From NCBI RefSeq assembly GCF_014280175.1, contig NZ_CP047931.1, positions 1,230,001 through 1,262,000 on the forward strand: a DNA stretch of 32,000 bases, in the 5' to 3' direction. The stretch is from Synechococcus sp. A15-28. Its GTDB lineage: Bacteria; Cyanobacteriota; Cyanobacteriia; PCC-6307; Cyanobiaceae. The notes beneath the pieces are model-generated. The model ran no database searches. It had not been told where the DNA came from and saw nothing but the letters and a program-made list of their open reading frames with translations. Made by a program: the position numbers and the translations under genes. Every line of letters begins with the position of its first letter. Position 1 is the stretch's first letter. This document shows positions 3 to 32,000 of the stretch, in pieces.

Positions 3-782
3 ATGGAGCTTGCACGGCCGACCCTGGATGAAATCCTGGCAATGAGCTTTGACGAGCAGACCAAGGTGATGTGCGACCTGGCTGCCAAAATCAACAGCCC
101 TGTTTCTGTTCGATACGCCTACTGGTCAGTGAACGTGAAGCTCTGCTTCTGGTATGAGCTGGGAGAGTTCATGCGCCAGGGCAAGGTGGCACCCATTCCT
201 CAGGGCTACAGGTTGTCCGCCAACGCCAACTCCGTGCTGGAGGCCGTCAAGAAAGTGGAGCAAGGCCAACAGATCACTCTGTTGCGCAACTTCGTGGTCG
301 ATATGGGCTACGACCCCGATGTGGATGACAGCAAGGTGGTCTCCGAGCCGATCGTGGCACCGACACCGGTTGATCAGCGGGAAGACATTCTGATCCCCGG
401 CGTGCTGAATCAGACCATCCTTAGTTACATGCAGCTGCTTAATGCCAACGACTTTGATCAGCTGATCGATCTGTTTCTCAATGATGGTGCGCTGCAGCCC
501 CCCTTCCAACGTCCCATTGTTGGCCGCGAAGCCATCCTGAAATTCTTCAAGCGCGATTGTCAGAACCTGAAGCTGATGCCCCAGGGCGGTTACGGCGAGC
601 CAACGGAAGGTGGCTTCAACCAGATCAAGGTCACCGGCAAGGTGCAGACCCCTTGGTTCGGTCGGGACGTTGGCATGAACGTGGCCTGGCGTTTCCTGCT
701 GGATGAGAATGACAAGATCTATTTCGTAGCCATCGACTTACTGGCATCTCCAGCCGAGTTGCTCAAGCTGGGTGGCAAATGA
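3..782 (+). CDS. ocp: Orange carotenoid protein (OCP), 5' end cut by the window edge
   Basis: The ORF is open at the window start. The translation matches remembered Synechocystis OCP along its length: MCDLA, SANANxVL and GQQITxLRNxVVDMG in the N-domain; NANDFDxLIxLF, DGALQPPFQRPIVG, QIKVTGKVQTPWFG, AWRFLL and FVAIDLLASP in the NTF2-like C-domain. Confidence 0.93.
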   Translation: MELARPTLDEILAMSFDEQTKVMCDLAAKINSPVSVRYAYWSVNVKLCFWYELGEFMRQGKVAPIPQGYRLSANANSVLEAVKKVEQGQQITLLRNFVVDMGYDPDVDDSKVVSEPIVAPTPVDQREDILIPGVLNQTILSYMQLLNANDFDQLIDLFLNDGALQPPFQRPIVGREAILKFFKRDCQNLKLMPQGGYGEPTEGGFNQIKVTGKVQTPWFGRDVGMNVAWRFLLDENDKIYFVAIDLLASPAELLKLGGK

Positions 783-1503
783 GTTCAGCCCCCAGGCTCG
801 CAAAGGGTTGGTTCTGGCTGGTCTGATTGGATCAGCCTGGCTGCTCACCCTTGGCCTGGGCTTCAGCCTGCCGCTCCATCAGACCTCTTGGCTGCTGATT
901 GGCTGCTTGGTTCTGCTGAGGTCGTTTCTGCATACCGGGCTGTTCATCGTTGCCCACGACGCCATGCACGCCAGTCTCGTTCCGGATCATCCCGGTTTGA
1001 ACCGCTGGATCGGCAGGGTTTGTTTATTGATGTATGCGGGCTTGTCTTATAAGCGATGTTGCCGCAACCACAGGCGTCATCACCAGGCACCAGAAACGGT
1101 TGAGGATCCTGACTACCAACGGTGCACGAACAACAACATCCTGGATTGGTATGTTCACTTCATGAGCAACTATCTGGGCTGGCAACAACTTTTGAATTTA
1201 AGTTGTGTTTGGCTGGCGCTTACCTTCAGAGTATCTGATTACTCTGCGCAGTTCTTCCATCTGTTGTTGTTCAGTGTTCTGCCACTTATTGTCAGTTCTT
1301 GTCAATTGTTCCTGGTGGGAACCTGGTTACCCCATCGACGTGGAGCCACGACACGACCGGGCGTTACAACACGCAGCCTAAATTTACATCCAGCACTCTC
1401 TTTCGCAGCTTGTTACCACTTTGGCTATCATCGCGAGCATCACGAATCGCCTTCCACACCCTGGTTTCAGCTGCCAAAACTTCGAGAAGGATCATTGATT
1501 TGA
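772..1503 (+). CDS. crtW: Beta-carotene ketolase, CrtW type
   Basis: It has the three His boxes (HDAMH, HRRHH, HREHH) and hydrophobic segments typical of CrtW and membrane desaturases. The first codon is GTG at 772 and overlaps the ocp stop (780-782). There is no in-frame ATG before the first His box. Confidence 0.86.
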   Translation: MANEFSPQARKGLVLAGLIGSAWLLTLGLGFSLPLHQTSWLLIGCLVLLRSFLHTGLFIVAHDAMHASLVPDHPGLNRWIGRVCLLMYAGLSYKRCCRNHRRHHQAPETVEDPDYQRCTNNNILDWYVHFMSNYLGWQQLLNLSCVWLALTFRVSDYSAQFFHLLLFSVLPLIVSSCQLFLVGTWLPHRRGATTRPGVTTRSLNLHPALSFAACYHFGYHREHHESPSTPWFQLPKLREGSLI

Positions 1504-19128: not shown

Positions 19129-19277
19129 CGTCTTCAGACGGGGATTTCTTCAACCTAGCCACGCAAATCCAACGTAAATGTGACGACTCAAACCAAAGCA
19201 TTCGTCATGGCGCCCTGTCAGAGCTGGACAACGTGATACTGGGGGACTAAGACAGAAATGTCGTCACCACGACGCAG

Positions 19278-19344
19278 CGTTCACTTCGCTTTCTGCGGAG
19301 CGCAGCTCGACTCAGGCCATGGAACGGGGGTCTGGGCTTGCTTC
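19278..19344 (+). promoter_or_regulatory. Structured leader RNA, copy 1 (glutamine-riboswitch-like, glnA RNA / Downstream-peptide family)
   Basis: CGUUC (19278-19282) pairs with GAACG in GGAACGGGG (19321-19329). The internal hairpin is CUUCGC/UUUCU/GCGGAG. The 44-nt 3' block is 40/44 identical to copy 2. It sits upstream of a short ORF. Confidence 0.6.
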
Positions 19345-19546: not shown

Positions 19547-21268
19547 GTGATGCTTTCAATAGCATCAGCGGATCGCTGGTTCGACCCCATGCCCACCGTC
19601 GCGCACAGTTTTGAGGACTTCAGCCAGCGGATCGACTACTCACTGCTGAAAGCGCTGAAGCCTGATCCTGAAGCCACAGCGGACGGCAATGACCACCGCC
19701 CCAGGCCGGTGTTCTCAGGCCACTGGGTGCCGGTGAAGCCCACACCCATTCCGGATCCGAAATACGTCGCCCACAGCTTCCGTTTGTTCGCGGAACTTGG
19801 TCTCAGCGATGACCTCGCCCACAACGCCGACTTCACCCGGCTCTTCTCCGGTGATGCATCGGTGGCAACCGACCCGATGCACCCGTGGGGGTGGGCCACC
19901 GGCTATGCCCTGTCGATCTACGGCACGGAATACATCCAGCAGTGCCCCTTCGGCACCGGCAACGGCTACGGCGACGGCCGGGCGATGTCGATCGTTGAGG
20001 GGGTTTTTGAGGGCCAGCGCTGGGAGATGCAACTGAAGGGCGGCGGCCCGACCCCCTACTGCCGTGGGGCCGATGGCCGGGCCGTACTCCGCTCCAGCGT
20101 GCGCGAATTTCTGGCCCAGGAGTTCATGCATGCCCTCGGCGTTCCCACCTCCCGTTCACTGGCGCTGTATCGCTCCGAAGCCGAAACGGTGCGACGCCCC
20201 TGGTACTCGGACCAGTCACGCTCCTTTGATCCCGACGTGATGGTCGACAACCAGGCCGCCATCAGCACTCGGGTGGCGCCGTCGTTTCTGCGGGTGGGGC
20301 AGATCGAGCTGTTCGCACGCCGCGCACGCGACAACGCCCATCCCGATGCCCAGGAGGAACTGCGGCTGATAGTGCAGCACCTGATCGACCGCAACTACCG
20401 CACCGAGATTGACGCCGCCCTGCCCTTCCATCAGCAGGTGCTGGAGCTGGCGCGTCTGTTCCGCAGTCGACTCACGGCCCTGGTCGCCAACTGGATGCGC
20501 GTCGGCTACTGCCAGGGCAACTTCAACAGCGACAACTGCGCAGCCGGCGGTTACACCCTCGACTACGGCCCCTTCGGCTTCTGCGAATTGTTCGACCCCC
20601 GCTTCCAACCCTGGACCGGTGGTGGGGCCCACTTCTCCTTCTTCAATCAGCCGACAGCAGCGGAGGCCAACTACCGGATGTTCTGGCGATCCCTGCGCAC
20701 TCTGCTGGAGGGGGATGACGCAGCCCAGCGCGAGCTCGATCTACTCAACGAAGGGTTTGCAGTGGCCATGCAGCAGCAACTGGAGGCGATGTGGGCCAGC
20801 AAGCTGGCACTCCCCGCCTACGACGAAGCCCTGGTGACCGAGCTGTTGCAGCTGTTGGTGGCCGCCAAGGCCGACTACATCAAGGCCTTCCGCCTGCTCT
20901 CGGCCATTCCCGAGCGGGTCGCCGAGTTGCACGCGAGTTTCTACCTGCCCTGTTCCGAAGACCTGGATCAACGCTGGCAGACCTGGCTGCAACGCTGGCG
21001 CGAGCGGATCACCGCCAACGGCAACCTGGAGGAGACGTCTGCGGCCATGCGGCGCGTCAACCCCGCCATCACCTGGCGGGAATGGCTGATCGCCCCCGCC
21101 TATCAACAGGCGGAGCTGGGCGACAACAGCCTGGTGCTGGAACTGCAGACCCTGTTCAGCAACCCCTACAGCGACCCCTCCCCTGAACTGGCGGCCCGCT
21201 ACGACCAACTCAGGCCGCAGCAGTTCTTCAGCGCCGGCGGCATCTCTCACTACAGCTGTTCGTCCTGA
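19547..21268 (+). CDS. selO: Protein adenylyltransferase SelO (YdiU/UPF0061)
   Basis: Collinear with remembered E. coli SelO: GDGRA, LKGGGPTPY..GDGRAVLRSSVREFL..E.MH.LG+PT+R, RVAPS.LR.G, N.DN, LDYGPFGF and the C-terminal SCSS. The start is GTG 19547 or ATG 19550. Confidence 0.92.
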   Translation: MMLSIASADRWFDPMPTVAHSFEDFSQRIDYSLLKALKPDPEATADGNDHRPRPVFSGHWVPVKPTPIPDPKYVAHSFRLFAELGLSDDLAHNADFTRLFSGDASVATDPMHPWGWATGYALSIYGTEYIQQCPFGTGNGYGDGRAMSIVEGVFEGQRWEMQLKGGGPTPYCRGADGRAVLRSSVREFLAQEFMHALGVPTSRSLALYRSEAETVRRPWYSDQSRSFDPDVMVDNQAAISTRVAPSFLRVGQIELFARRARDNAHPDAQEELRLIVQHLIDRNYRTEIDAALPFHQQVLELARLFRSRLTALVANWMRVGYCQGNFNSDNCAAGGYTLDYGPFGFCELFDPRFQPWTGGGAHFSFFNQPTAAEANYRMFWRSLRTLLEGDDAAQRELDLLNEGFAVAMQQQLEAMWASKLALPAYDEALVTELLQLLVAAKADYIKAFRLLSAIPERVAELHASFYLPCSEDLDQRWQTWLQRWRERITANGNLEETSAAMRRVNPAITWREWLIAPAYQQAELGDNSLVLELQTLFSNPYSDPSPELAARYDQLRPQQFFSAGGISHYSCSS

Positions 21269-25837: not shown

Positions 25838-25851
25838 GTAGCAACTGCTAC
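25838..25851. promoter_or_regulatory. Perfect GTA-N8-TAC palindrome (NtcA-type site)
   Basis: GTAGCAACTGCTAC, extended as TGTAGCA-AC-TGCTACA, ends 7 nt before leader copy 2. Confidence 0.45.
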
Positions 25852-25858
25852 AGCATCA

Positions 25859-25925
25859 CGTTCACCTCACCTCCGGTGAGGCGCAGTTCGACTCAGGCCA
25901 TGGAACGGGGACCTGAGCTTGCTTC
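25859..25925 (+). promoter_or_regulatory. Structured leader RNA, copy 2 (glutamine-riboswitch-like)
   Basis: CGUUC (25859-25863) pairs with GAACG in GGAACGGGG (25902-25910). The hairpin is CCUCACC/UCC/GGUGAGG. CUCAGG pairs with CCUGAG around the conserved CCAUGGAACGGGG. It lies directly upstream of a DUF4278-type peptide gene. Confidence 0.65.
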
Positions 25926-25937
25926 GAGGAACCCATC

Positions 25938-26042
25938 ATGACCCTGACCTATCGCGGCCAGAAGTACGTGCAGAACAACGCTGCTGCCCAAAACAGCAAG
26001 CGTTCTGTTTTGGTGTATCGCGGTCACAAAGTGGCTCAGTAA
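25938..26042 (+). CDS. DUF4278-type short peptide (34 aa)
   Basis: MTLTYRGQKYVQNNAAAQNSKRSVLVYRGHKVAQ has two YRGxK(Y/V) repeats, as remembered for DUF4278. It is absent from the ORF track (<60 aa) and is followed by an intrinsic terminator. Confidence 0.7.
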   Translation: MTLTYRGQKYVQNNAAAQNSKRSVLVYRGHKVAQ

Positions 26043-26346: not shown

Positions 26347-26476
26347 GCATCGGTGAGATCGCCGAAGTTACCTGAACTCTTCGGGATCAGAGCCGCCTGA
26401 TGGGTACCCCCTGTTGTTCAGCACAACCAACCAGCGCTTGAAGATCGCGTTAGGAGGGGGCGTCGACCCAATCGGA

Positions 26477-26662
26477 ATGCCACTGTTCGTCTGTGCCGGC
26501 TGCAGCATGCGCATCGAGCGCTCGATGGCCACTTATCTGCGCATGAAAGGCCGCGTGCTGTGCTCCACCTGTCTGGACCGCATGGAGGCTGAACAGACGG
26601 ATGGCAAAGACAGAAACGAACCAGGCCCCTCGAAGCCGACTCGAACCTCACCGATCAGTTGA
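26477..26662 (+). CDS. Small zinc-ribbon-like protein (61 aa)
   Basis: From the internal ATG 26477: MPLFVCAGCSMRIERSMATYLRMKGRVLCSTCLDRMEAEQ..., with CxxC...CxxC. Confidence 0.45.
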   Translation: MPLFVCAGCSMRIERSMATYLRMKGRVLCSTCLDRMEAEQTDGKDRNEPGPSKPTRTSPIS

Positions 26663-26731
26663 TGGCGACATTTCGTAGCTGATCACACCACATGAGTTGC
26701 CGCTGCAACGGACAGTGGGCTTGCGGAGAAA

Positions 26732-26820
26732 CCTAGGGTTCCGGTTCCGTCAGGGATGACTGGTCCGAGAGGTTTCGGTCGGTTCTGCCGACTGCACGGA
26801 GGGACAAAAGCCCGGGAGAC
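26732..26820 (+). promoter_or_regulatory. Guanidine-I (ykkC) riboswitch aptamer
   Basis: CTAGGGTTCCGG (26733-26744), GGTCCGAGAG (26762-26771) and ACGGAGGGACAAAAGCCCGGGAGA (26796-26819) occur in the order of the remembered ykkC consensus, 25 nt upstream of the hydrolase ATG. Confidence 0.85.
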
Positions 26821-26844
26821 CGCATCCACCCCATCTCCCCTCCG

Positions 26845-28035
26845 ATGTCCTCCCCCTCAGACCCCACTGGGGCCTTCCAGCGATCGCACCCCAGCGAGGG
26901 TTTCGCTGCGCTCGAAAAAGAACGGAAACTCCCGCTCACCGGCTGGCAACAGGAAGTTGATCAGGCCAAGCGTTTTGGCCTCGAAGCAGCCGAGAGCATC
27001 GTGGACCGCAACATCTCCACGTTTTCGCGAGGCGAATTGCCTCACTTTGCAGGAATCAACACTTTCATGAAGGCTCCCTACCTGGAGGATGTCACCCAGG
27101 TGGGGAACTACGACGTCGCCATCATCGGAGTACCCCACGATTGTGGGACGACGTACCGACCAGGCACCCGATTCGGCCCCCAGGGCATCCGCAGGATTTC
27201 TGCGCTGTACACCCCGTACAACTACGAGATGGGAGTGGACCTGCGTGAACAGATCACCCTGTGCGATGTCGGAGACATCTTCACGATTCCAGCCAACAAC
27301 GAGAAGAGTTTCGATCAGATCTCCAAGGGCATCGCCCACGTCTTCGCCAGCGGCGCCTTCCCGATCATTCTCGGCGGCGACCACTCCATCGGCTTCCCCA
27401 CTGTTCGTGGTGTTTGCCGCCATCTCGGTGACAAGAAAGTGGGCATCATCCACTTCGATCGACATGTCGACACCCAGGAGATCGACCTGGATGAACGCAT
27501 GCACACCTGTCCGTGGTTCCACGCCACCAACATGGCGAATGCCCCAGCTGAAAACCTGGTGCAGCTCGGCATCGGTGGTTGGCAAGTTCCCAGGGAAGGG
27601 GTGAAGGTTTGCCGTGAACGCGGCACCAACGTTCTCACAGTCACCGACATCACCGAGATGGGCCTGGAGGCGGCTGCTCAGTACGCCATAGAACGGGCCA
27701 CGGATGGTACTGACTGCGTCTACATCTCCTTTGATATCGACTGCATCGATGCCGGCTTTGTGCCGGGTACCGGTTGGCCCGAACCGGGCGGCCTGCTGCC
27801 GCGAGAAGCCCTCAAGCTGCTCGAGTTGATTGTCCGCAATATCCCGGTCTGTGGGCTCGAGATCGTTGAGGTGTCGCCTCCGTATGACATTAGTGACATG
27901 ACCTCATTGATGGCCACCCGCGTGATCTGCGATGCCATGGCTCACCTCGTGGTCAGCGGCCAGCTGCCCCGAAAGGGCACGCCGGCCTGGATCAGCGATG
28001 TCTGCAACATGAACGTCGATCAGAAGTGGAGGTAA
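26845..28035 (+). CDS. gdmH: Arginase-fold ureohydrolase, GdmH-like guanidine hydrolase (automated labels would say agmatinase/SpeB)
   Basis: Metal-ligand motifs GGDHSI, FDRHVD and SFDIDCIDAGFVPGTG. The length is about 396 aa with an N-terminal extension, as in Sll1077. It follows a guanidine riboswitch and precedes HypA/HypB-like genes. Confidence 0.8.
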   Translation: MSSPSDPTGAFQRSHPSEGFAALEKERKLPLTGWQQEVDQAKRFGLEAAESIVDRNISTFSRGELPHFAGINTFMKAPYLEDVTQVGNYDVAIIGVPHDCGTTYRPGTRFGPQGIRRISALYTPYNYEMGVDLREQITLCDVGDIFTIPANNEKSFDQISKGIAHVFASGAFPIILGGDHSIGFPTVRGVCRHLGDKKVGIIHFDRHVDTQEIDLDERMHTCPWFHATNMANAPAENLVQLGIGGWQVPREGVKVCRERGTNVLTVTDITEMGLEAAAQYAIERATDGTDCVYISFDIDCIDAGFVPGTGWPEPGGLLPREALKLLELIVRNIPVCGLEIVEVSPPYDISDMTSLMATRVICDAMAHLVVSGQLPRKGTPAWISDVCNMNVDQKWR

Positions 28036-28038
28036 GCC

Positions 28039-28437
28039 ATGCACGAAGTCGACATGACCAAATGTCTACAGATCTCCCTCAATGAGTGGCGGGAACGTCG
28101 GGATGATCCCAGCGCAATGGTGGAAGTCATTCATCTCGATGTGGGGCGTTTCACCTGCGTGGAGCCCGATCAGCTGGTGACCACGTACAACGCCGCTGTC
28201 CAGGGCACCTGGCTGGATGGCTCCCGACTCACCATCACAGACATCCCCTTCGTTGGGTGCTGTGTGCTCTGCAAAAGCAGTTATTCCCCAACTCCGGAGA
28301 ACGCCTACCGATCCCCCTGCTGTGATCACCCCCTTGAAGACATTCTCAGCGGCAGGGAACTGAGGATCCGCAGCATCGATTACCGCAGTGATCCAGGTGC
28401 TGCTCTTGAGTCCACCTCAATCCAGCGTTCGCGCTGA
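28039..28437 (+). CDS. ghaA: HypA-like nickel metallochaperone (GhaA-like)
   Basis: N-terminal MHE nickel-binding motif, and Cys cluster CCVLC-x15-CCDH in place of the usual two CxxC pairs. It starts 3 nt after the hydrolase stop. Confidence 0.75.
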
Positions 28438-28456
28438 AACCCATAACGACATAACC

Positions 28457-29176
28457 ATGCACATGCCCCTCGAGGACACCCTCGGTCTCAACCTTCTCGC
28501 CGCCAACCAACACCAGGCGGAGCACAACCAGGAGCACTTTGAGTGTTGGAACCTGCTCTGCCTCAATCTGATGAGCAGTCCTGGAGCCGGTAAGACGGCC
28601 CTGCTGGAACGCTCCCTTCCCGTCCTGACAGCGCAGCACAAGATGGCTGTCTTGGAGGGAGACATGACCACCCAGCTCGACGCTGAGCGGCTTGAGGCCG
28701 TCGGCATTCCGGTGGTGCCCATCACCACCGGTCGGGCGTGCCATCTCGATGCCTCCATGGTGAGCGGTGGGCTCACATTGCTGAAACAGCGACTGGATCC
28801 CGCCCAGCTCGATCTGCTGCTGGTGGAGAACGTCGGAAACCTCGTTTGTCCCGCCGAATTTGATGTTGGCGAACACCACAAGGTGGCCCTGCTCAGCGTC
28901 ACCGAAGGCGACGACAAACCACTTAAATACCCGCTGATGTTCCGTCAGGCCGATGTGGTGCTGATCACCAAGGTCGATCTGCTTCCCCACCTGCCTGTGG
29001 AGCTGGGGGCGATCCGCCGCAACATCCTCAGCATCAATCCCAACGCCACGGTGATCGAGGTCTCCGCCATCAGCGGCGAAGGGCTCGAGACCTGGCACCA
29101 GTGGGTGCGACAGGCCATTGCCGAGCGCACCACTGGAGCTTCAGCCATTCAGTCCCCCGCTCTGGCTACCGCCTGA
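28457..29176 (+). CDS. ghaB: HypB-like nickel GTPase (GhaB-like)
   Basis: P-loop SSPGAGKT, the CH metal motif (GRACHLDA), ENVGNLVCP and TKVDL. The ATG at 28457 is preferred over the track start at 28388, which overlaps the ghaA-like gene. Confidence 0.85.
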
Positions 29177-29214
29177 GCACAGTCCCTCTCCTCCTTCCCC
29201 ATCACGCCAATGCC

Positions 29215-30216
29215 ATGACCAAACAACTCCGCAATCTCCTGATCGCCGGCCTGGCGGTCGTTCTGGCCGTTGCCTGTTCCAAACCCTCAACGCCAGCGGT
29301 GGGCGGGACTCCGATCGTGCTCGGCTACAGCAACTGGGCCGGCTGGTGGCCATGGGCCATCGCCGTGGAAGAGAAGCTGTTCGAAAAGAACGGCGTGAAC
29401 GTTGAAATGAAATGGTTCGACGGCTACGTGCAGTCGATGGAAACCTTTGCTGCCGGCAAGATCGACGGCAATTCCCAAACACTCAACGACACCATCTCCT
29501 TCCTGCCTGGTGAGAACGGTGGCGAGGTTGTAGTGCTGGTCAACGACAATTCCGCCGGCAACGATCAGATCATTGCCGATGCCTCGATCACATCCGTCGC
29601 CGAACTAAAAGGCAAGACGGTGGCTGTGGAAGAAGGAGTCGTCGACGACTATCTGCTCAGCCTTGCCCTGAAGGATGTCGGCCTCAGCCGTGAGGATGTA
29701 GTGATCAAGGGCATGCCCACAGACCAGGCCGCCACGGCTTTCGCAGCCGGTCAGGTGGATGCTGTCGGCGCCTTCCCTCCTTACACCGGCACTGCTATGC
29801 AGCGAGAGGGTGCTCGGGTGATTGCCAGCTCCAAGGAGTATCCAGGCGCCATCCCTGATCTGCTCACTGTCAGTGGTGATTTGATCAAGGAACGGCCCGA
29901 CGACGTTCAAAAGATCGTCAAAACCTGGTGGGATGTGCGCGACTACATGGAGAAGAACCCCGAGAAATCGGAGGCGATCATGGCCAAGAGAGCTGGCATC
30001 CCCACAGAGGAATACGAGCAGTACAAGGACGGAACCCGTTTTTTCTCGATCAAGGAGAACCTGGAAGCTTTCAGCGATGGCGAGGGAATGCAATTCATGC
30101 CTTACGCCTCGGAATCCATGGCTGACTTCATGGTGTCGGTCGGATTCATTCCCGAGAAACCGGACATGAGCAACCTGTTCGATTCCAGCTTCATCAAGAA
30201 GGTCGCTGACTCCTGA
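29215..30216 (+). CDS. ABC transporter substrate-binding lipoprotein (NitT/TauT, NMT1-like)
   Basis: From ATG 29215: MTKQLRNLLIAGLAVVLAVAC (lipobox), then an NMT1/THI5-like SBP pattern (GYSNWAGWWPW). Confidence 0.82.
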   Translation: MTKQLRNLLIAGLAVVLAVACSKPSTPAVGGTPIVLGYSNWAGWWPWAIAVEEKLFEKNGVNVEMKWFDGYVQSMETFAAGKIDGNSQTLNDTISFLPGENGGEVVVLVNDNSAGNDQIIADASITSVAELKGKTVAVEEGVVDDYLLSLALKDVGLSREDVVIKGMPTDQAATAFAAGQVDAVGAFPPYTGTAMQREGARVIASSKEYPGAIPDLLTVSGDLIKERPDDVQKIVKTWWDVRDYMEKNPEKSEAIMAKRAGIPTEEYEQYKDGTRFFSIKENLEAFSDGEGMQFMPYASESMADFMVSVGFIPEKPDMSNLFDSSFIKKVADS

Positions 30217-31043
30217 TGACTGTCACGGCCGCCGCTGCCCACAAGGGGAAGAGCGCAGGGCTCCTCTCTCTGGTCACCCTGGGGGCCACCCCGTCGGGAA
30301 CCGTGCGCGGCGGCCTGCAGGTCGCCTCCCTGCTTCTTCCCCTGCTGGCCTGGGCTGCTATCGCCTCACTTGGGCTGGTGGATGAGAAATTTCTGCCGTC
30401 TCCAGCGGCTGTTTTCAAGTCCCTGGCCTCCATGGCCGAAAGCGGCATCCTGTTTCAGGACATCGTCGCCAGCACCGGACGCGTCTTCGCCGGATTCCTT
30501 CTGGCCACGGTGCTGGCCGTACCGATCGGTATCTGCATGGGGGTTTACCCGGCGATCTGCGCTCTCTGTGAGCCTCTGATCGCCATGCTGCGCTACATGC
30601 CGGCAGCCGCGTTCATCCCCCTGCTGATCATCTACCTCGGCATTGGTGAAGAACCCAAGATCGCGTTGATCTTTCTTGGCACGATCTATTTCAACATCCT
30701 GATGGTGATGGATGCGGTGAAATTCGTTCCCAAGGAACTCATCGAAACCACCCTGACACTCGGCGGCCGCAGCAGTCAGGTTCTGGTGCAGGTTGTGGCG
30801 CGTTACAGCTTGCCGAGCATCATCGACACCCTGCGCATCAACATCGCCACGTCCTGGAATCTCGTGGTGGTGGCTGAGCTTGTGGCAGCCGAAGTGGGTC
30901 TGGGCAAACGCATTCAATTGGCCCAGCGTTTCTTCCGCACGGATCAGATCTTTGCCGAGCTGATCGTGCTTGGGCTGATCGGGTTCGCTATCGACATGGG
31001 CTTCCGACTGTTGCTTCGTCTCAGCTGTCGTTGGGCGGTCTGA
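30216..31043 (+). CDS. ABC transporter permease (NitT/TauT family)
   Basis: About six TM helices and a BPD-type permease pattern. The ATG overlaps the SBP stop (TGATG at 30214-30218). Confidence 0.86.
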   Translation: MTVTAAAAHKGKSAGLLSLVTLGATPSGTVRGGLQVASLLLPLLAWAAIASLGLVDEKFLPSPAAVFKSLASMAESGILFQDIVASTGRVFAGFLLATVLAVPIGICMGVYPAICALCEPLIAMLRYMPAAAFIPLLIIYLGIGEEPKIALIFLGTIYFNILMVMDAVKFVPKELIETTLTLGGRSSQVLVQVVARYSLPSIIDTLRINIATSWNLVVVAELVAAEVGLGKRIQLAQRFFRTDQIFAELIVLGLIGFAIDMGFRLLLRLSCRWAV

Positions 31044-31045
31044 CC

Positions 31046-31801
31046 ATGGAACTGAGCGTCCATAACTTATCCAAGCGCTATGGCGACAAAACGATTCTCC
31101 AGGGCATCAATTTCTCGATGCAGTCCGGTGATTTCGTTACCTTCGTCGGCAGCTCAGGTTGTGGCAAGAGCACCCTGCTACGGCTGATTGCAGGTCTCGA
31201 TCAGCCCAGCAGCGGCAGCATCCATGTGGATGGTTCACCGGTTCAAGCGCCGGGCCCGGACCGTGGCATGGTGTTTCAGAAATACAGCCTCTATCCGTGG
31301 CTGAATGCAGCCGATAACGTCGCCTTCGGCATGCGGCTGCAAGGGTTGAAGCCAGCGGACGTGCGCGAGCGCACCGCCTACTTCCTGGAGGTGGTGGGTC
31401 TGCAGGAAGCCGCCACCAAACTCCCGCGGGAACTCTCCGGTGGCATGCAGCAACGGGTGGCCATCGCCCGAGCCTTGGCCACCAATCCAAGCGTGCTTCT
31501 CCTTGATGAACCCTTTGGTGCTCTGGACCTCCAGATTCGGGAAACCATGCAGGATTTCCTGCTCAAACTCTGGCAACGTACGGGTCTGACCGTGCTTCTG
31601 ATCACCCACGATGTGGAGGAAGCCCTCGTCCTGGCTCAACGGGTTTACGTGCTGGCACCAAACCCCGGCCGCATCATCCGCTCCCTCGACGTGAACCTGA
31701 ACAAAGGCGATCTGGACAAGCTCCGCCTCAGCGGTGAGTTCCTGCAGCTGCGCCGCAGCCTTTCAGGATCGCTGCGTCAGCTGGAATCAACCGTGGGTTG
31801 A
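31046..31801 (+). CDS. ABC transporter ATP-binding protein
   Basis: Walker A GSSGCGKST, signature LSGGMQQR, Walker B LLLDEPF and H-loop ITHD. The ATG at 31046 is preferred over TTG at 31031. Confidence 0.9.
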   Translation: MELSVHNLSKRYGDKTILQGINFSMQSGDFVTFVGSSGCGKSTLLRLIAGLDQPSSGSIHVDGSPVQAPGPDRGMVFQKYSLYPWLNAADNVAFGMRLQGLKPADVRERTAYFLEVVGLQEAATKLPRELSGGMQQRVAIARALATNPSVLLLDEPFGALDLQIRETMQDFLLKLWQRTGLTVLLITHDVEEALVLAQRVYVLAPNPGRIIRSLDVNLNKGDLDKLRLSGEFLQLRRSLSGSLRQLESTVG

Positions 31802-32000
31802 TGGCGCCAAACGAATTTCTGCCTTCGCACATCTACTGCACGGAGACATCACATCGTTGGGATCGAAGCCAATACGCCGGTCACTGGTGGCATCCTGTCG
31901 GCAGCGCCTGGGATCTCCAACCAGGGCACAGCCTGGCGGTCCAGCTGCTGGGGCAACAGCTGCTGCTGACGCGACCAGATGAAGGCCCGCCAATGGCCTT
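31801..32000 (+). CDS. Rieske-type [2Fe-2S] oxygenase, N-terminal fragment (3' end beyond the window)
   Basis: The ATG shares its A with the ATPase stop (TGATG). The frame is open to the window end and is not in the ORF track. HWWHPVGSAWDLQPGHSLAVQLLGQQLLLTRPDEG matches the W-x-PV...DL..G....LLG..L+L.R lead-in of Rieske domains. The CxH/CxxH ligands would lie beyond 32000. Confidence 0.5.
   Translation, partial: MAPNEFLPSHIYCTETSHRWDRSQYAGHWWHPVGSAWDLQPGHSLAVQLLGQQLLLTRPDEGPPMA

Follow-up and report, generated by a model that had tools for sequence, protein, structure and literature searches.

A very probable guanidine-assimilation operon, with a riboswitch leader and an appended Rieske oxygenase gene, in marine Synechococcus sp. 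A15-28

The DNA studied here, called the window throughout, is a stretch of 32,000 nucleotides (nt) from Synechococcus sp. A15-28 (assembly GCF_014280175.1, contig NZ_CP047931.1, positions 1,230,001-1,262,000 of the forward strand). Near its end lies a group of genes that is very likely the guanidine-assimilation operon of marine Synechococcus, orthologous to gdmH-ghaA-ghaB-gimABC of Synechocystis. The operon core comprises an aptamer followed by six tightly packed genes, gdmH, ghaA, ghaB, gimA, gimB and gimC; operon coordinates are given as window positions, all on the + strand, and a seventh gene is cut by the window end. The same six genes in the same order form sll1077-1079 and gimABC (sll1080-1082) of Synechocystis PCC 6803, where they are accompanied by a validated guanidine-I riboswitch and NtcA-dependent promoters and where gimABC was named by Itzenhauser et al. 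2025 (PMC12704784). The likeness to sll1077-sll1082, with a nickel-dependent GdmH matured by GhaA and GhaB, had been pointed out in an earlier model-made reading of this DNA (the sequence-only reading), and both the published gene order and an 84.6% identity to Sll1077 bear it out.

The core system is known biology. We count it as such because it has been published in Synechocystis (Wang 2021; Funck 2022; Itzenhauser 2025) and in marine picocyanobacteria, the cluster and its riboswitch having been reported for marine Synechococcus by Doré et al. 2023. The latter paper (ISME J; PMC10119275) places the cluster in marine Synechococcus and Prochlorococcus of nitrogen-poor, iron-replete waters, and the units named Syn-eCAG_001 and Pro-eCAG_004 hold the same elements: a ykkC riboswitch, speB2, homologs of hypA/B, a transporter resembling TauABC and, downstream, a Rieske Fe-S protein, CK_00002251. 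The work is comparative and ecological; the passages retrieved give the Rieske protein no function and mention neither an NtcA box, nor the GhaA cysteine variant, nor the expression platform. What the present analysis adds is an NtcA-type box, details of the Rieske gene, a clade-wide cysteine variant in GhaA and a riboswitch leader devoid of terminator. The box and the seventh, coupled gene at 31801 also go beyond the sequence-only reading.

At least 586 matches to the cluster were confirmed in a scan of species-representative genomes, many of them in Synechococcus, Cyanobium and Prochlorococcus. Among the matches listed, marine Synechococcus ranked best, with 96% protein identity for GdmH and ~81% DNA identity across the cluster. 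Gene order and the tight or overlapping junctions are kept in the related loci of marine Synechococcus and Prochlorococcus. L085, a contig from a metagenome, shares 96.7% identity with the window over 3,627 ungapped nt and continues past the window end. The identities of the parts, and the conservation of their catalytic, diagnostic and ligand-pocket residues, are established by sequence. What experiments in Synechocystis have shown, namely enzyme activity, the need for nickel, binding by GimA, function of the riboswitch and control by NtcA, would carry over by homology.

The hydrolase, its chaperones and the importer

The first gene, gdmH (26845..28035), encodes a 396-aa protein of arginase fold, the putative Ni-dependent guanidine hydrolase. 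It matches PF00491 with an expectation value (E) of 1.3e-78, and its metal-ligand motifs are intact, with GGDHS at 177, DRHVD at 205 and SFDIDCID at 295, as first described from the letters alone. Alignment with the Sll1077 structures 7esr/7oi1 (E 9.5e-229) shows 84.6% identity over 382 ungapped positions, covering the whole length of the protein including the C-terminal extension. The guanidinase of Nitrospira inopinata (9fek) follows with E 2.5e-170 and 66.8% identity; the next-best matches are proclavaminate amidinohydrolase and guanidinobutyrase (1e-49), and bona fide agmatinases score between 1e-35 and 1e-38. Match scores and identity thus place GdmH nearer to the guanidinases than to other ureohydrolases.

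Residue-level comparison gives the same picture. Thr105, His222, Trp313 and Glu344 (N. inopinata numbering) are diagnostic of guanidinases (PMC11410670), and their counterparts in GdmH are T103, H220, W311 and E342, which are the same in Sll1077. The N. inopinata enzyme (9FEK; Palatinszky 2024) belongs to the same family and shares these residues and the metal ligands; it differs in lacking the C-terminal extension of the cyanobacterial enzymes, that of the window included, and in serving nitrifier energy and nitrogen metabolism. Sll1077 degrades guanidine and not agmatine (Wang et al. 2021, PMC8390497), while its Ni dependence and the role of GhaA and GhaB as maturases were established by Funck et al. 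2022, as cited in PMC12704784 and PMC12508155. By analogy, the window GdmH would hydrolyse free guanidine to urea and ammonium in a Ni2+-dependent reaction.

Three nucleotides separate gdmH from ghaA (TAA GCC ATG), which spans 28039..28437 and encodes a 132-aa HypA-like nickel metallochaperone. The protein starts MHEVD, carrying the Met-His-Glu nickel site that had been pointed out at its N terminus, and its HypA domain is recognised by PF01155 with 73.7 bits against a cut-off of 28.9. It falls below the cut-off of the hydrogenase hypA equivalog TIGR00100 (67.4 vs 88.1 bits), so that a hydrogenase HypA label would be inappropriate. Its structural metal site has an unusual layout, C75xxC78-x15-C94C95: the first motif, C75VLC78, is kept, and S-P-C94-C95 stands in place of C-P-x-C. 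Every picocyanobacterial GhaA retrieved shows CxxC-x15-S-P-C-C, whereas the homologs of eight outgroup, non-picocyanobacterial cyanobacteria (Sll1078 not among them) have CxxC-x13-C-P-x-C. Anchoring the sequences on the conserved P-[LM]-E-E-I-x-S-G-R-E-L that follows shows the leading Cys of the second pair replaced by Ser, with a new Cys two positions later. As four Cys residues remain in the picocyanobacterial proteins, a rearranged zinc site appears likely.

The sequence-only reading had noticed this arrangement as CVLC-x15-CC followed by Asp-His. The cysteine pattern proved real and clade-wide; the His as part of the altered site did not stand. A Cys3His site (CxxC...CxxH) using the His of CCDH was considered and rejected, relatives having CCDL, CCDQ, CCDR or CCNF at this place. 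This His is an unlikely ligand because it is not conserved, only the adjacent Cys-Cys pair being so. Next to the first motif, at 28258..28272 (GhaA residues 74-78), the window has GCCVLC where all relatives have G/A-R-C-x-x-C, a lineage-specific Arg-to-Cys change.

The third gene, ghaB (28457..29176), encodes a HypB-like GTPase of 239 aa. It scores 278.5 bits with TIGR00073 (cut-off 121.2) and displays the features already listed from the sequence: the G1 P-loop GAGKT at 43, GRACH, and ENVGNLVCP at 124. The CH...C metal site of the G domain is present too, but the protein lacks the high-affinity CxxCGC site that E. coli HypB has at its N terminus. The start is most likely ATG 28457 (MHMPLED), which agrees with the open reading frame (ORF) in L010 and with the genes of 239 aa called in L081 and L082. 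L010 and L081 are loci of the freshwater Cyanobium type, in which a glutamine-synthetase-family gene (Gln-synt_C) was seen between ghaB and gimA (about 12290..13656 in L010; 5011..6390, 459 aa, in L081).

The remaining three genes encode an ATP-binding cassette (ABC) importer, correctly described beforehand as a lipoprotein, permease and ATPase of NitT/TauT type with overlapping or near-abutting junctions. gimA (29215..30216) starts at ATG 29215 and encodes a 333-aa periplasmic or lipoprotein guanidine-binding protein by homology, with a signal peptide ending in LAVAC and 275.5 bits to TIGR01728 (SsuA_fam). In Sll1080, W59, W62, D135, F205 and D233 surround a docked guanidinium (PMC12704784). 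At an offset of -18, all five are found in the window protein as W41, W44, D117, F187 and D215, and no other offset gives even three matches. GimA is 59% identical to a Synechocystis-type homolog, the blocks GYSNWAGWWPWAIA, LVNDNSAGND, DAVGAFPP and PGAIPDLL being unchanged; the GimA of the freshwater Cyanobium-type loci L010 and L081 is 43-47% identical to the marine one. The permease gene gimB (30216..31043, 275 aa, PF00528) overlaps the gimA stop in TGATG; the nearest NCBIfam models, TauC and SaoP, both remain under cut-off. Two nucleotides past the gimB stop, ATG 31046 opens gimC (31046..31801), which encodes a 251-aa ABC ATPase (PF00005, 116.6 bits), a length with which the gene call in L085 agrees. 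Since Sll1080 binds guanidine with a dissociation constant (Kd) of 97 nM, and mutant phenotypes have been published (PMC12704784), GimABC would by analogy import guanidine with high affinity in Synechococcus as well.

The riboswitch leader and the upstream promoter

A riboswitch had been named in the sequence-only reading, whose span did not take it in. It is found at 26722..26820, where cmscan matches the full length (1-107) of the guanidine-I aptamer model (ykkC subtype 1, RF00442) at 86.6 bits and E 2.1e-14, the gathering score being 63. The Synechocystis counterpart, likewise situated in the 5' untranslated region, binds guanidine with a Kd of about 58 uM in in-line probing and induces a green fluorescent protein reporter (PMC12704784).

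Between the aptamer and gdmH lies an expression platform that consists of a C-rich, G-poor linker of 24 nt (26821..26844) running straight into the gdmH AUG. The linker contains no Shine-Dalgarno sequence, and no + strand terminator was found between aptamer and gdmH in the window. Picocyanobacterial relatives share this design, with C-rich, G-poor linkers of 16-36 nt that end at the AUG and have neither Shine-Dalgarno sequence nor terminator. In contrast, eight non-picocyanobacterial loci (L072-L079, Synechocystis not among them) have a hairpin and U-tract terminator after the aptamer, the 3' strand of which can pair with CCCGGGAG; this leader has the sequence layout of a classic antitermination design. 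In these loci the hairpin is followed by CUCCUGGG or CUCGGG and finally by a U-run. Because the aptamer reaches the AUG through 24 nt of C-rich linker without terminator, we favour translational control: the window riboswitch probably switches at translation initiation. As a candidate device, an anti-P3 helix formed by the C-rich linker around the AUG with the G-rich P3 and aptamer tail was examined with RNAduplex in 46 distinct loci, 300 shuffles being drawn for each. It proved no better than composition-matched shuffles, and the pairing CCCUCCG/CGGAGGG is not claimed as a switch.

Upstream of the aptamer, alignment conservation reveals an NtcA-type box, GTAGCTGATCACAC (GTA-N8-CAC), at 26675..26688 on the + strand. 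In an alignment of 8 marine loci (A1), the G, T and A of the first half and the final A and C are invariant, while the flanking upstream DNA is otherwise unconserved. In the canonical NtcA-activated promoter, GTA-N8-TAC is followed after about 22 nt by TAN3T. The window has a -10-like hexamer, GACAGT (26711..26716, + strand), 22 nt past the box, with columns A153, A155 and T157 conserved in A1; given this distance, transcription is predicted to start at ~26722, at about the first base of the aptamer. A regular-expression search for GTA-N8-[TC]AC gave hits in 44 of 81 loci (background, 0.057 per 330 nt). In nearly all loci that bear the aptamer (about 40), the box precedes the aptamer core by 58-62 nt; for three non-picocyanobacterial loci the distance is instead 93-104 nt.

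These data suggest that GTAGCTGATCACAC is probably bound by NtcA, which would activate the operon promoter. The conservation of the box and of its spacing from the aptamer implies control by both nitrogen status and guanidine. Such dual control, as demonstrated in Synechocystis, fits the locus, NtcA binding being the predicted part. The Synechocystis cluster too has its NtcA-type box upstream of the riboswitch, placed around -42 (PMC12704784).

Regulation must differ in Prochlorococcus. The loci L043, L048, L053 and L056 keep the full seven-gene cluster, yet none of the four has a guanidine-I aptamer at or above the gathering score, and no Prochlorococcus locus gave a GTA-N8-YAC box in the 330 nt before gdmH in the regular-expression search. 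As a separate observation, a small Cys-rich ORF of up to 82 aa (26414..26662, + strand; CAGC...CSTC) lies just upstream of the operon promoter and is conserved at the nucleotide level in L005.

The appended Rieske oxygenase gene

The gimC stop overlaps, again in TGATG, the ATG of a seventh gene whose first 66 codons (31801..32000, + strand) lie in the window. The encoded fragment is identical in 65 of 66 residues to P0143, a 341-aa protein encoded on L085. There, the full gene is followed by a convergent gene, which indicates that the operon ends with it. PF00355 and PF00848 match the full-length relative from L002 (356 aa) and are recorded for P0143 as well. Among 117 family members, the Rieske CxH...CxxH motif is present in 114 and the iron-site motif in 116; in full-length orthologs, C71, H73, C93, H96, H194, H199 and D298, which form the cluster and the 2-His-1-carboxylate site, are invariant, the window itself holding the first 66 residues only. 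By sequence, the product is a Rieske non-heme-iron oxygenase alpha subunit, translationally coupled to gimC. In several relatives, an ORF of ~290-305 aa converges on the Rieske gene and covers its last ~80-100 nt (L002, 15947..16816; L083, 5038..5952; L081, 10062..10958; all on the - strand). This convergent ORF carries an AP_endonuc_2 (xylose-isomerase-like) call in L083 and L084 and no Pfam match on record in L081. In L085, the window's own lineage, it measures 243 aa and has no Pfam match.

At E<=1e-10 the family is small, with 304 clusters, and all matches that name an organism are picocyanobacterial. Wherever found, the gene stands directly after gimC, even in homologs at 50-51% identity. 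A predicted structure of high quality (predicted local distance difference test 90.8, predicted template-modelling score 0.90) has as its nearest fold the carnitine monooxygenase CntA, with template-modelling (TM) scores of 0.84/0.81 at ~22% identity, and then stachydrine demethylase. The modelled protein has the two-domain, alpha-only fold of CntA, Stc2 and GbcA, Rieske monooxygenases of quaternary ammonium compounds, and its Rieske and mononuclear-iron motifs are intact. It differs from them in its low identity, in having no adjacent reductase gene and in occurring only in picocyanobacterial guanidine operons. The best curated family, the glycine-betaine monooxygenase GbcA, is matched with 85.1 bits, far under its cut-off of 670. 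A literature search for a Rieske enzyme in guanidine operons returned only a bare mention, in PMC10119275.

What such an enzyme might do was considered in the light of these data. One tentative proposal, to which we give limited credence, is that the operon also handles substituted guanidines: the Rieske protein would remove an N-alkyl group (for example, converting methylguanidine to guanidine and formaldehyde) or free guanidine from a guanidino compound, and GdmH would then hydrolyse the product. The stop overlap and constant position after gimC, the restriction of the family to picocyanobacteria and the invariant Rieske and 2-His/carboxylate motifs all speak for it. So does the modelled fold, CntA and stachydrine demethylase being enzymes that hydroxylate the carbon next to a cationic nitrogen, and so does the best curated match, GbcA being a glycine-betaine N-demethylase. 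A precedent exists in Vreelandella boliviensis, where an operon under a guanidine riboswitch likewise joins the breakdown of guanidine to an ABC importer and to an oxygenase, in this case an unrelated one that demethylates methylguanidine (PMC12508155). The two systems differ in that Vreelandella uses a 2-oxoglutarate/Fe(II) dioxygenase and a lyase (MgdH/MgdL) with a carboxylase pathway, while the window has the Rieske protein and GdmH, with demethylation hypothetical. Several points count against the proposal. At ~22% identity to characterised enzymes and 85 bits out of 670 for GbcA, the substrate cannot be inferred; the operon includes no gene for a reductase or ferredoxin; and the binding pocket of GimA is as tight around guanidine as that of Sll1080 and may not admit substituted guanidines. 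Moreover, the cluster occurs without the Rieske gene in Synechocystis, in several Cyanobium and in non-picocyanobacterial loci, so that the gene is not needed for the core pathway. Given that CntA-type relatives break a C-N bond, and given the Vreelandella precedent, a guanidine-releasing dealkylase is the most interesting reading of the gene. The broader proposal, in which the Rieske protein is a new enzyme releasing guanidine from N-substituted guanidines in a system that also has a rearranged CxxC/SPCC zinc site in GhaA and a terminator-less riboswitch acting at translation, is equally conjectural.

Surroundings of the operon and alternative readings

The window opens inside an orange carotenoid protein gene (Carot_N, NTF2), followed by an overlapping gene of the CrtW-like fatty-acid-desaturase family (3..1503). 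The ten upstream ORFs scanned comprise these two (the orange carotenoid protein as a fragment), a glycosyltransferase, a LuxR-type regulator, DUF429, an amine oxidase-like protein, a gamma-glutamyltranspeptidase, SelO, a P450 and one ORF without Pfam match. A Glutamine-II riboswitch was detected at 25856..25917 (72.2 bits), immediately preceded by a perfect NtcA palindrome, GTAGCAACTGCTAC, at 25838..25851 and followed by a 34-aa ORF at 25938..26042 (MTLTYRGQKYVQ...YRGHKVAQ). This layout (25838..26042) resembles that of the cyanobacterial genes for glutamine synthetase-inactivating factors, repressed by NtcA and controlled by a glutamine riboswitch. A second Glutamine-II riboswitch (19275..19336, 60.4 bits) lies ~210 nt upstream of the SelO-family ORF at 19547..21268, with only small ORFs in between.

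Automatic annotation would read the operon differently, as a SpeB agmatinase of polyamine synthesis next to HypA/HypB proteins for hydrogenase or urease maturation and a sulfonate or taurine transporter. The labels have a visible origin: the NCBIfam agmatinase equivalog TIGR01230 passes on GdmH (177.1 vs a cut-off of 174.3), the TIGR00073 hypB and TIGR01728 SsuA_fam models pass as well, and databases name GimA homologs 'aliphatic sulfonate ABC transporter substrate-binding protein'. That TIGR01230 is exceeded by just 3 bits accounts for the persistent mis-annotation as agmatinase. We assign almost no probability to this reading. GdmH is closest to an enzyme that degrades guanidine and not agmatine, the agmatinases trailing at about 1e-35 against 1e-228 for Sll1077, and the published enzymology of this 85%-identical ortholog disagrees with the default annotation; a guanidine-specific riboswitch stands directly upstream of gdmH; the hypA equivalog fails on GhaA; and the substrate-binding protein bears the guanidinium pocket of GimA. 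Nor was any hydrogenase or urease family met among the ten large upstream ORFs scanned (out of 19 mechanically listed ORFs with 170 aa or more, several of which overlap one another; smaller ORFs were not scanned). The warnings of the sequence-only reading, that there are no hydrogenase genes and that agmatinase or hydrogenase-maturation labels mislead, thus hold within this scope.

A second alternative keeps the enzymology and changes the purpose, the cluster serving mainly to detoxify guanidine made inside the cell. Guanidine is indeed toxic to cyanobacteria above millimolar levels, GdmH relieves this toxicity (PMC8390497, PMC12704784), and induction by guanidine through a riboswitch would fit such a role. 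However, the same operon encodes a high-affinity importer that brings guanidine in, which makes no sense for detoxification alone, and the conserved NtcA-type box would link expression to nitrogen limitation. In ocean metatranscriptomes, tauA (that is, gimA) groups with amt1 and urtA in a nitrogen-stress cluster, their transcripts co-varying under nitrogen scarcity, and PMC10119275 reports enrichment of the cluster in nitrogen-poor waters. We consider this explanation improbable. Assimilation of free guanidine, taken up and used as a nitrogen source as the sequence-only reading had proposed, is thus supported, with the functions carried over by homology. In this scheme, NtcA would activate, under nitrogen limitation, a promoter ~47 nt upstream of the guanidine-I riboswitch; guanidinium binding to the aptamer would then turn on the downstream genes, probably at translation initiation. 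GimABC would bring guanidine in with high affinity, GhaA and GhaB would load nickel into GdmH, and GdmH would split guanidine into urea and ammonium.

Some observations weigh against parts of this scheme. The window box, GTA-N8-CAC, departs by one mismatch from GTA-N8-TAC; set against the canonical promoter layout, it combines this mismatch with GACAGT at 22 nt and a position conserved in about 40 loci. In Synechocystis, gimABC has an NtcA promoter to itself, whereas the window has a single packed unit with only 38 nt between ghaB and gimA and no evident second promoter. A search for one uncovered just a weak GTG-N8-CAC inside ghaB at 28955, so that this candidate is not supported, and with a gap of this size and no convincing second box, transcript structure may differ from that of Synechocystis. 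In the leader, the linker-P3 duplex has a median z of -0.24 over 46 loci (window z -1.04, fraction 0.14), and the minimum free energy is unremarkable (z = 0.86). GhaA departs from the two-CxxC structural zinc site of canonical HypA in missing the second CxxC; together with the failed TIGR00100, this is consistent with a specialised GhaA. Finally, the literature searched yielded no experiments on a marine picocyanobacterium, growth on guanidine being reported only for Synechocystis and Synechococcus sp. PCC 7002.

Altogether, these results confirm published biology, in which guanidine is a genuine nitrogen source for cyanobacteria. Their practical value lies in annotation repair, as none of the labels 'agmatinase', 'hydrogenase maturation factor' or 'sulfonate transporter' is correct at this locus. 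Beyond the six genes shared with Synechocystis, whose cluster has no Rieske gene, the remaining interest rests on the uncharacterised Rieske oxygenase, the clade-wide variant of the GhaA zinc site and the unusual terminator-less riboswitch platform. If the Rieske protein does release guanidine, it would explain the absence of the cluster from low-iron waters and would widen the pool of dissolved organic nitrogen usable by marine Synechococcus and Prochlorococcus. In the oligotrophic ocean, the conversion of substituted guanidines to guanidine would then define a new route of entry for organic nitrogen.

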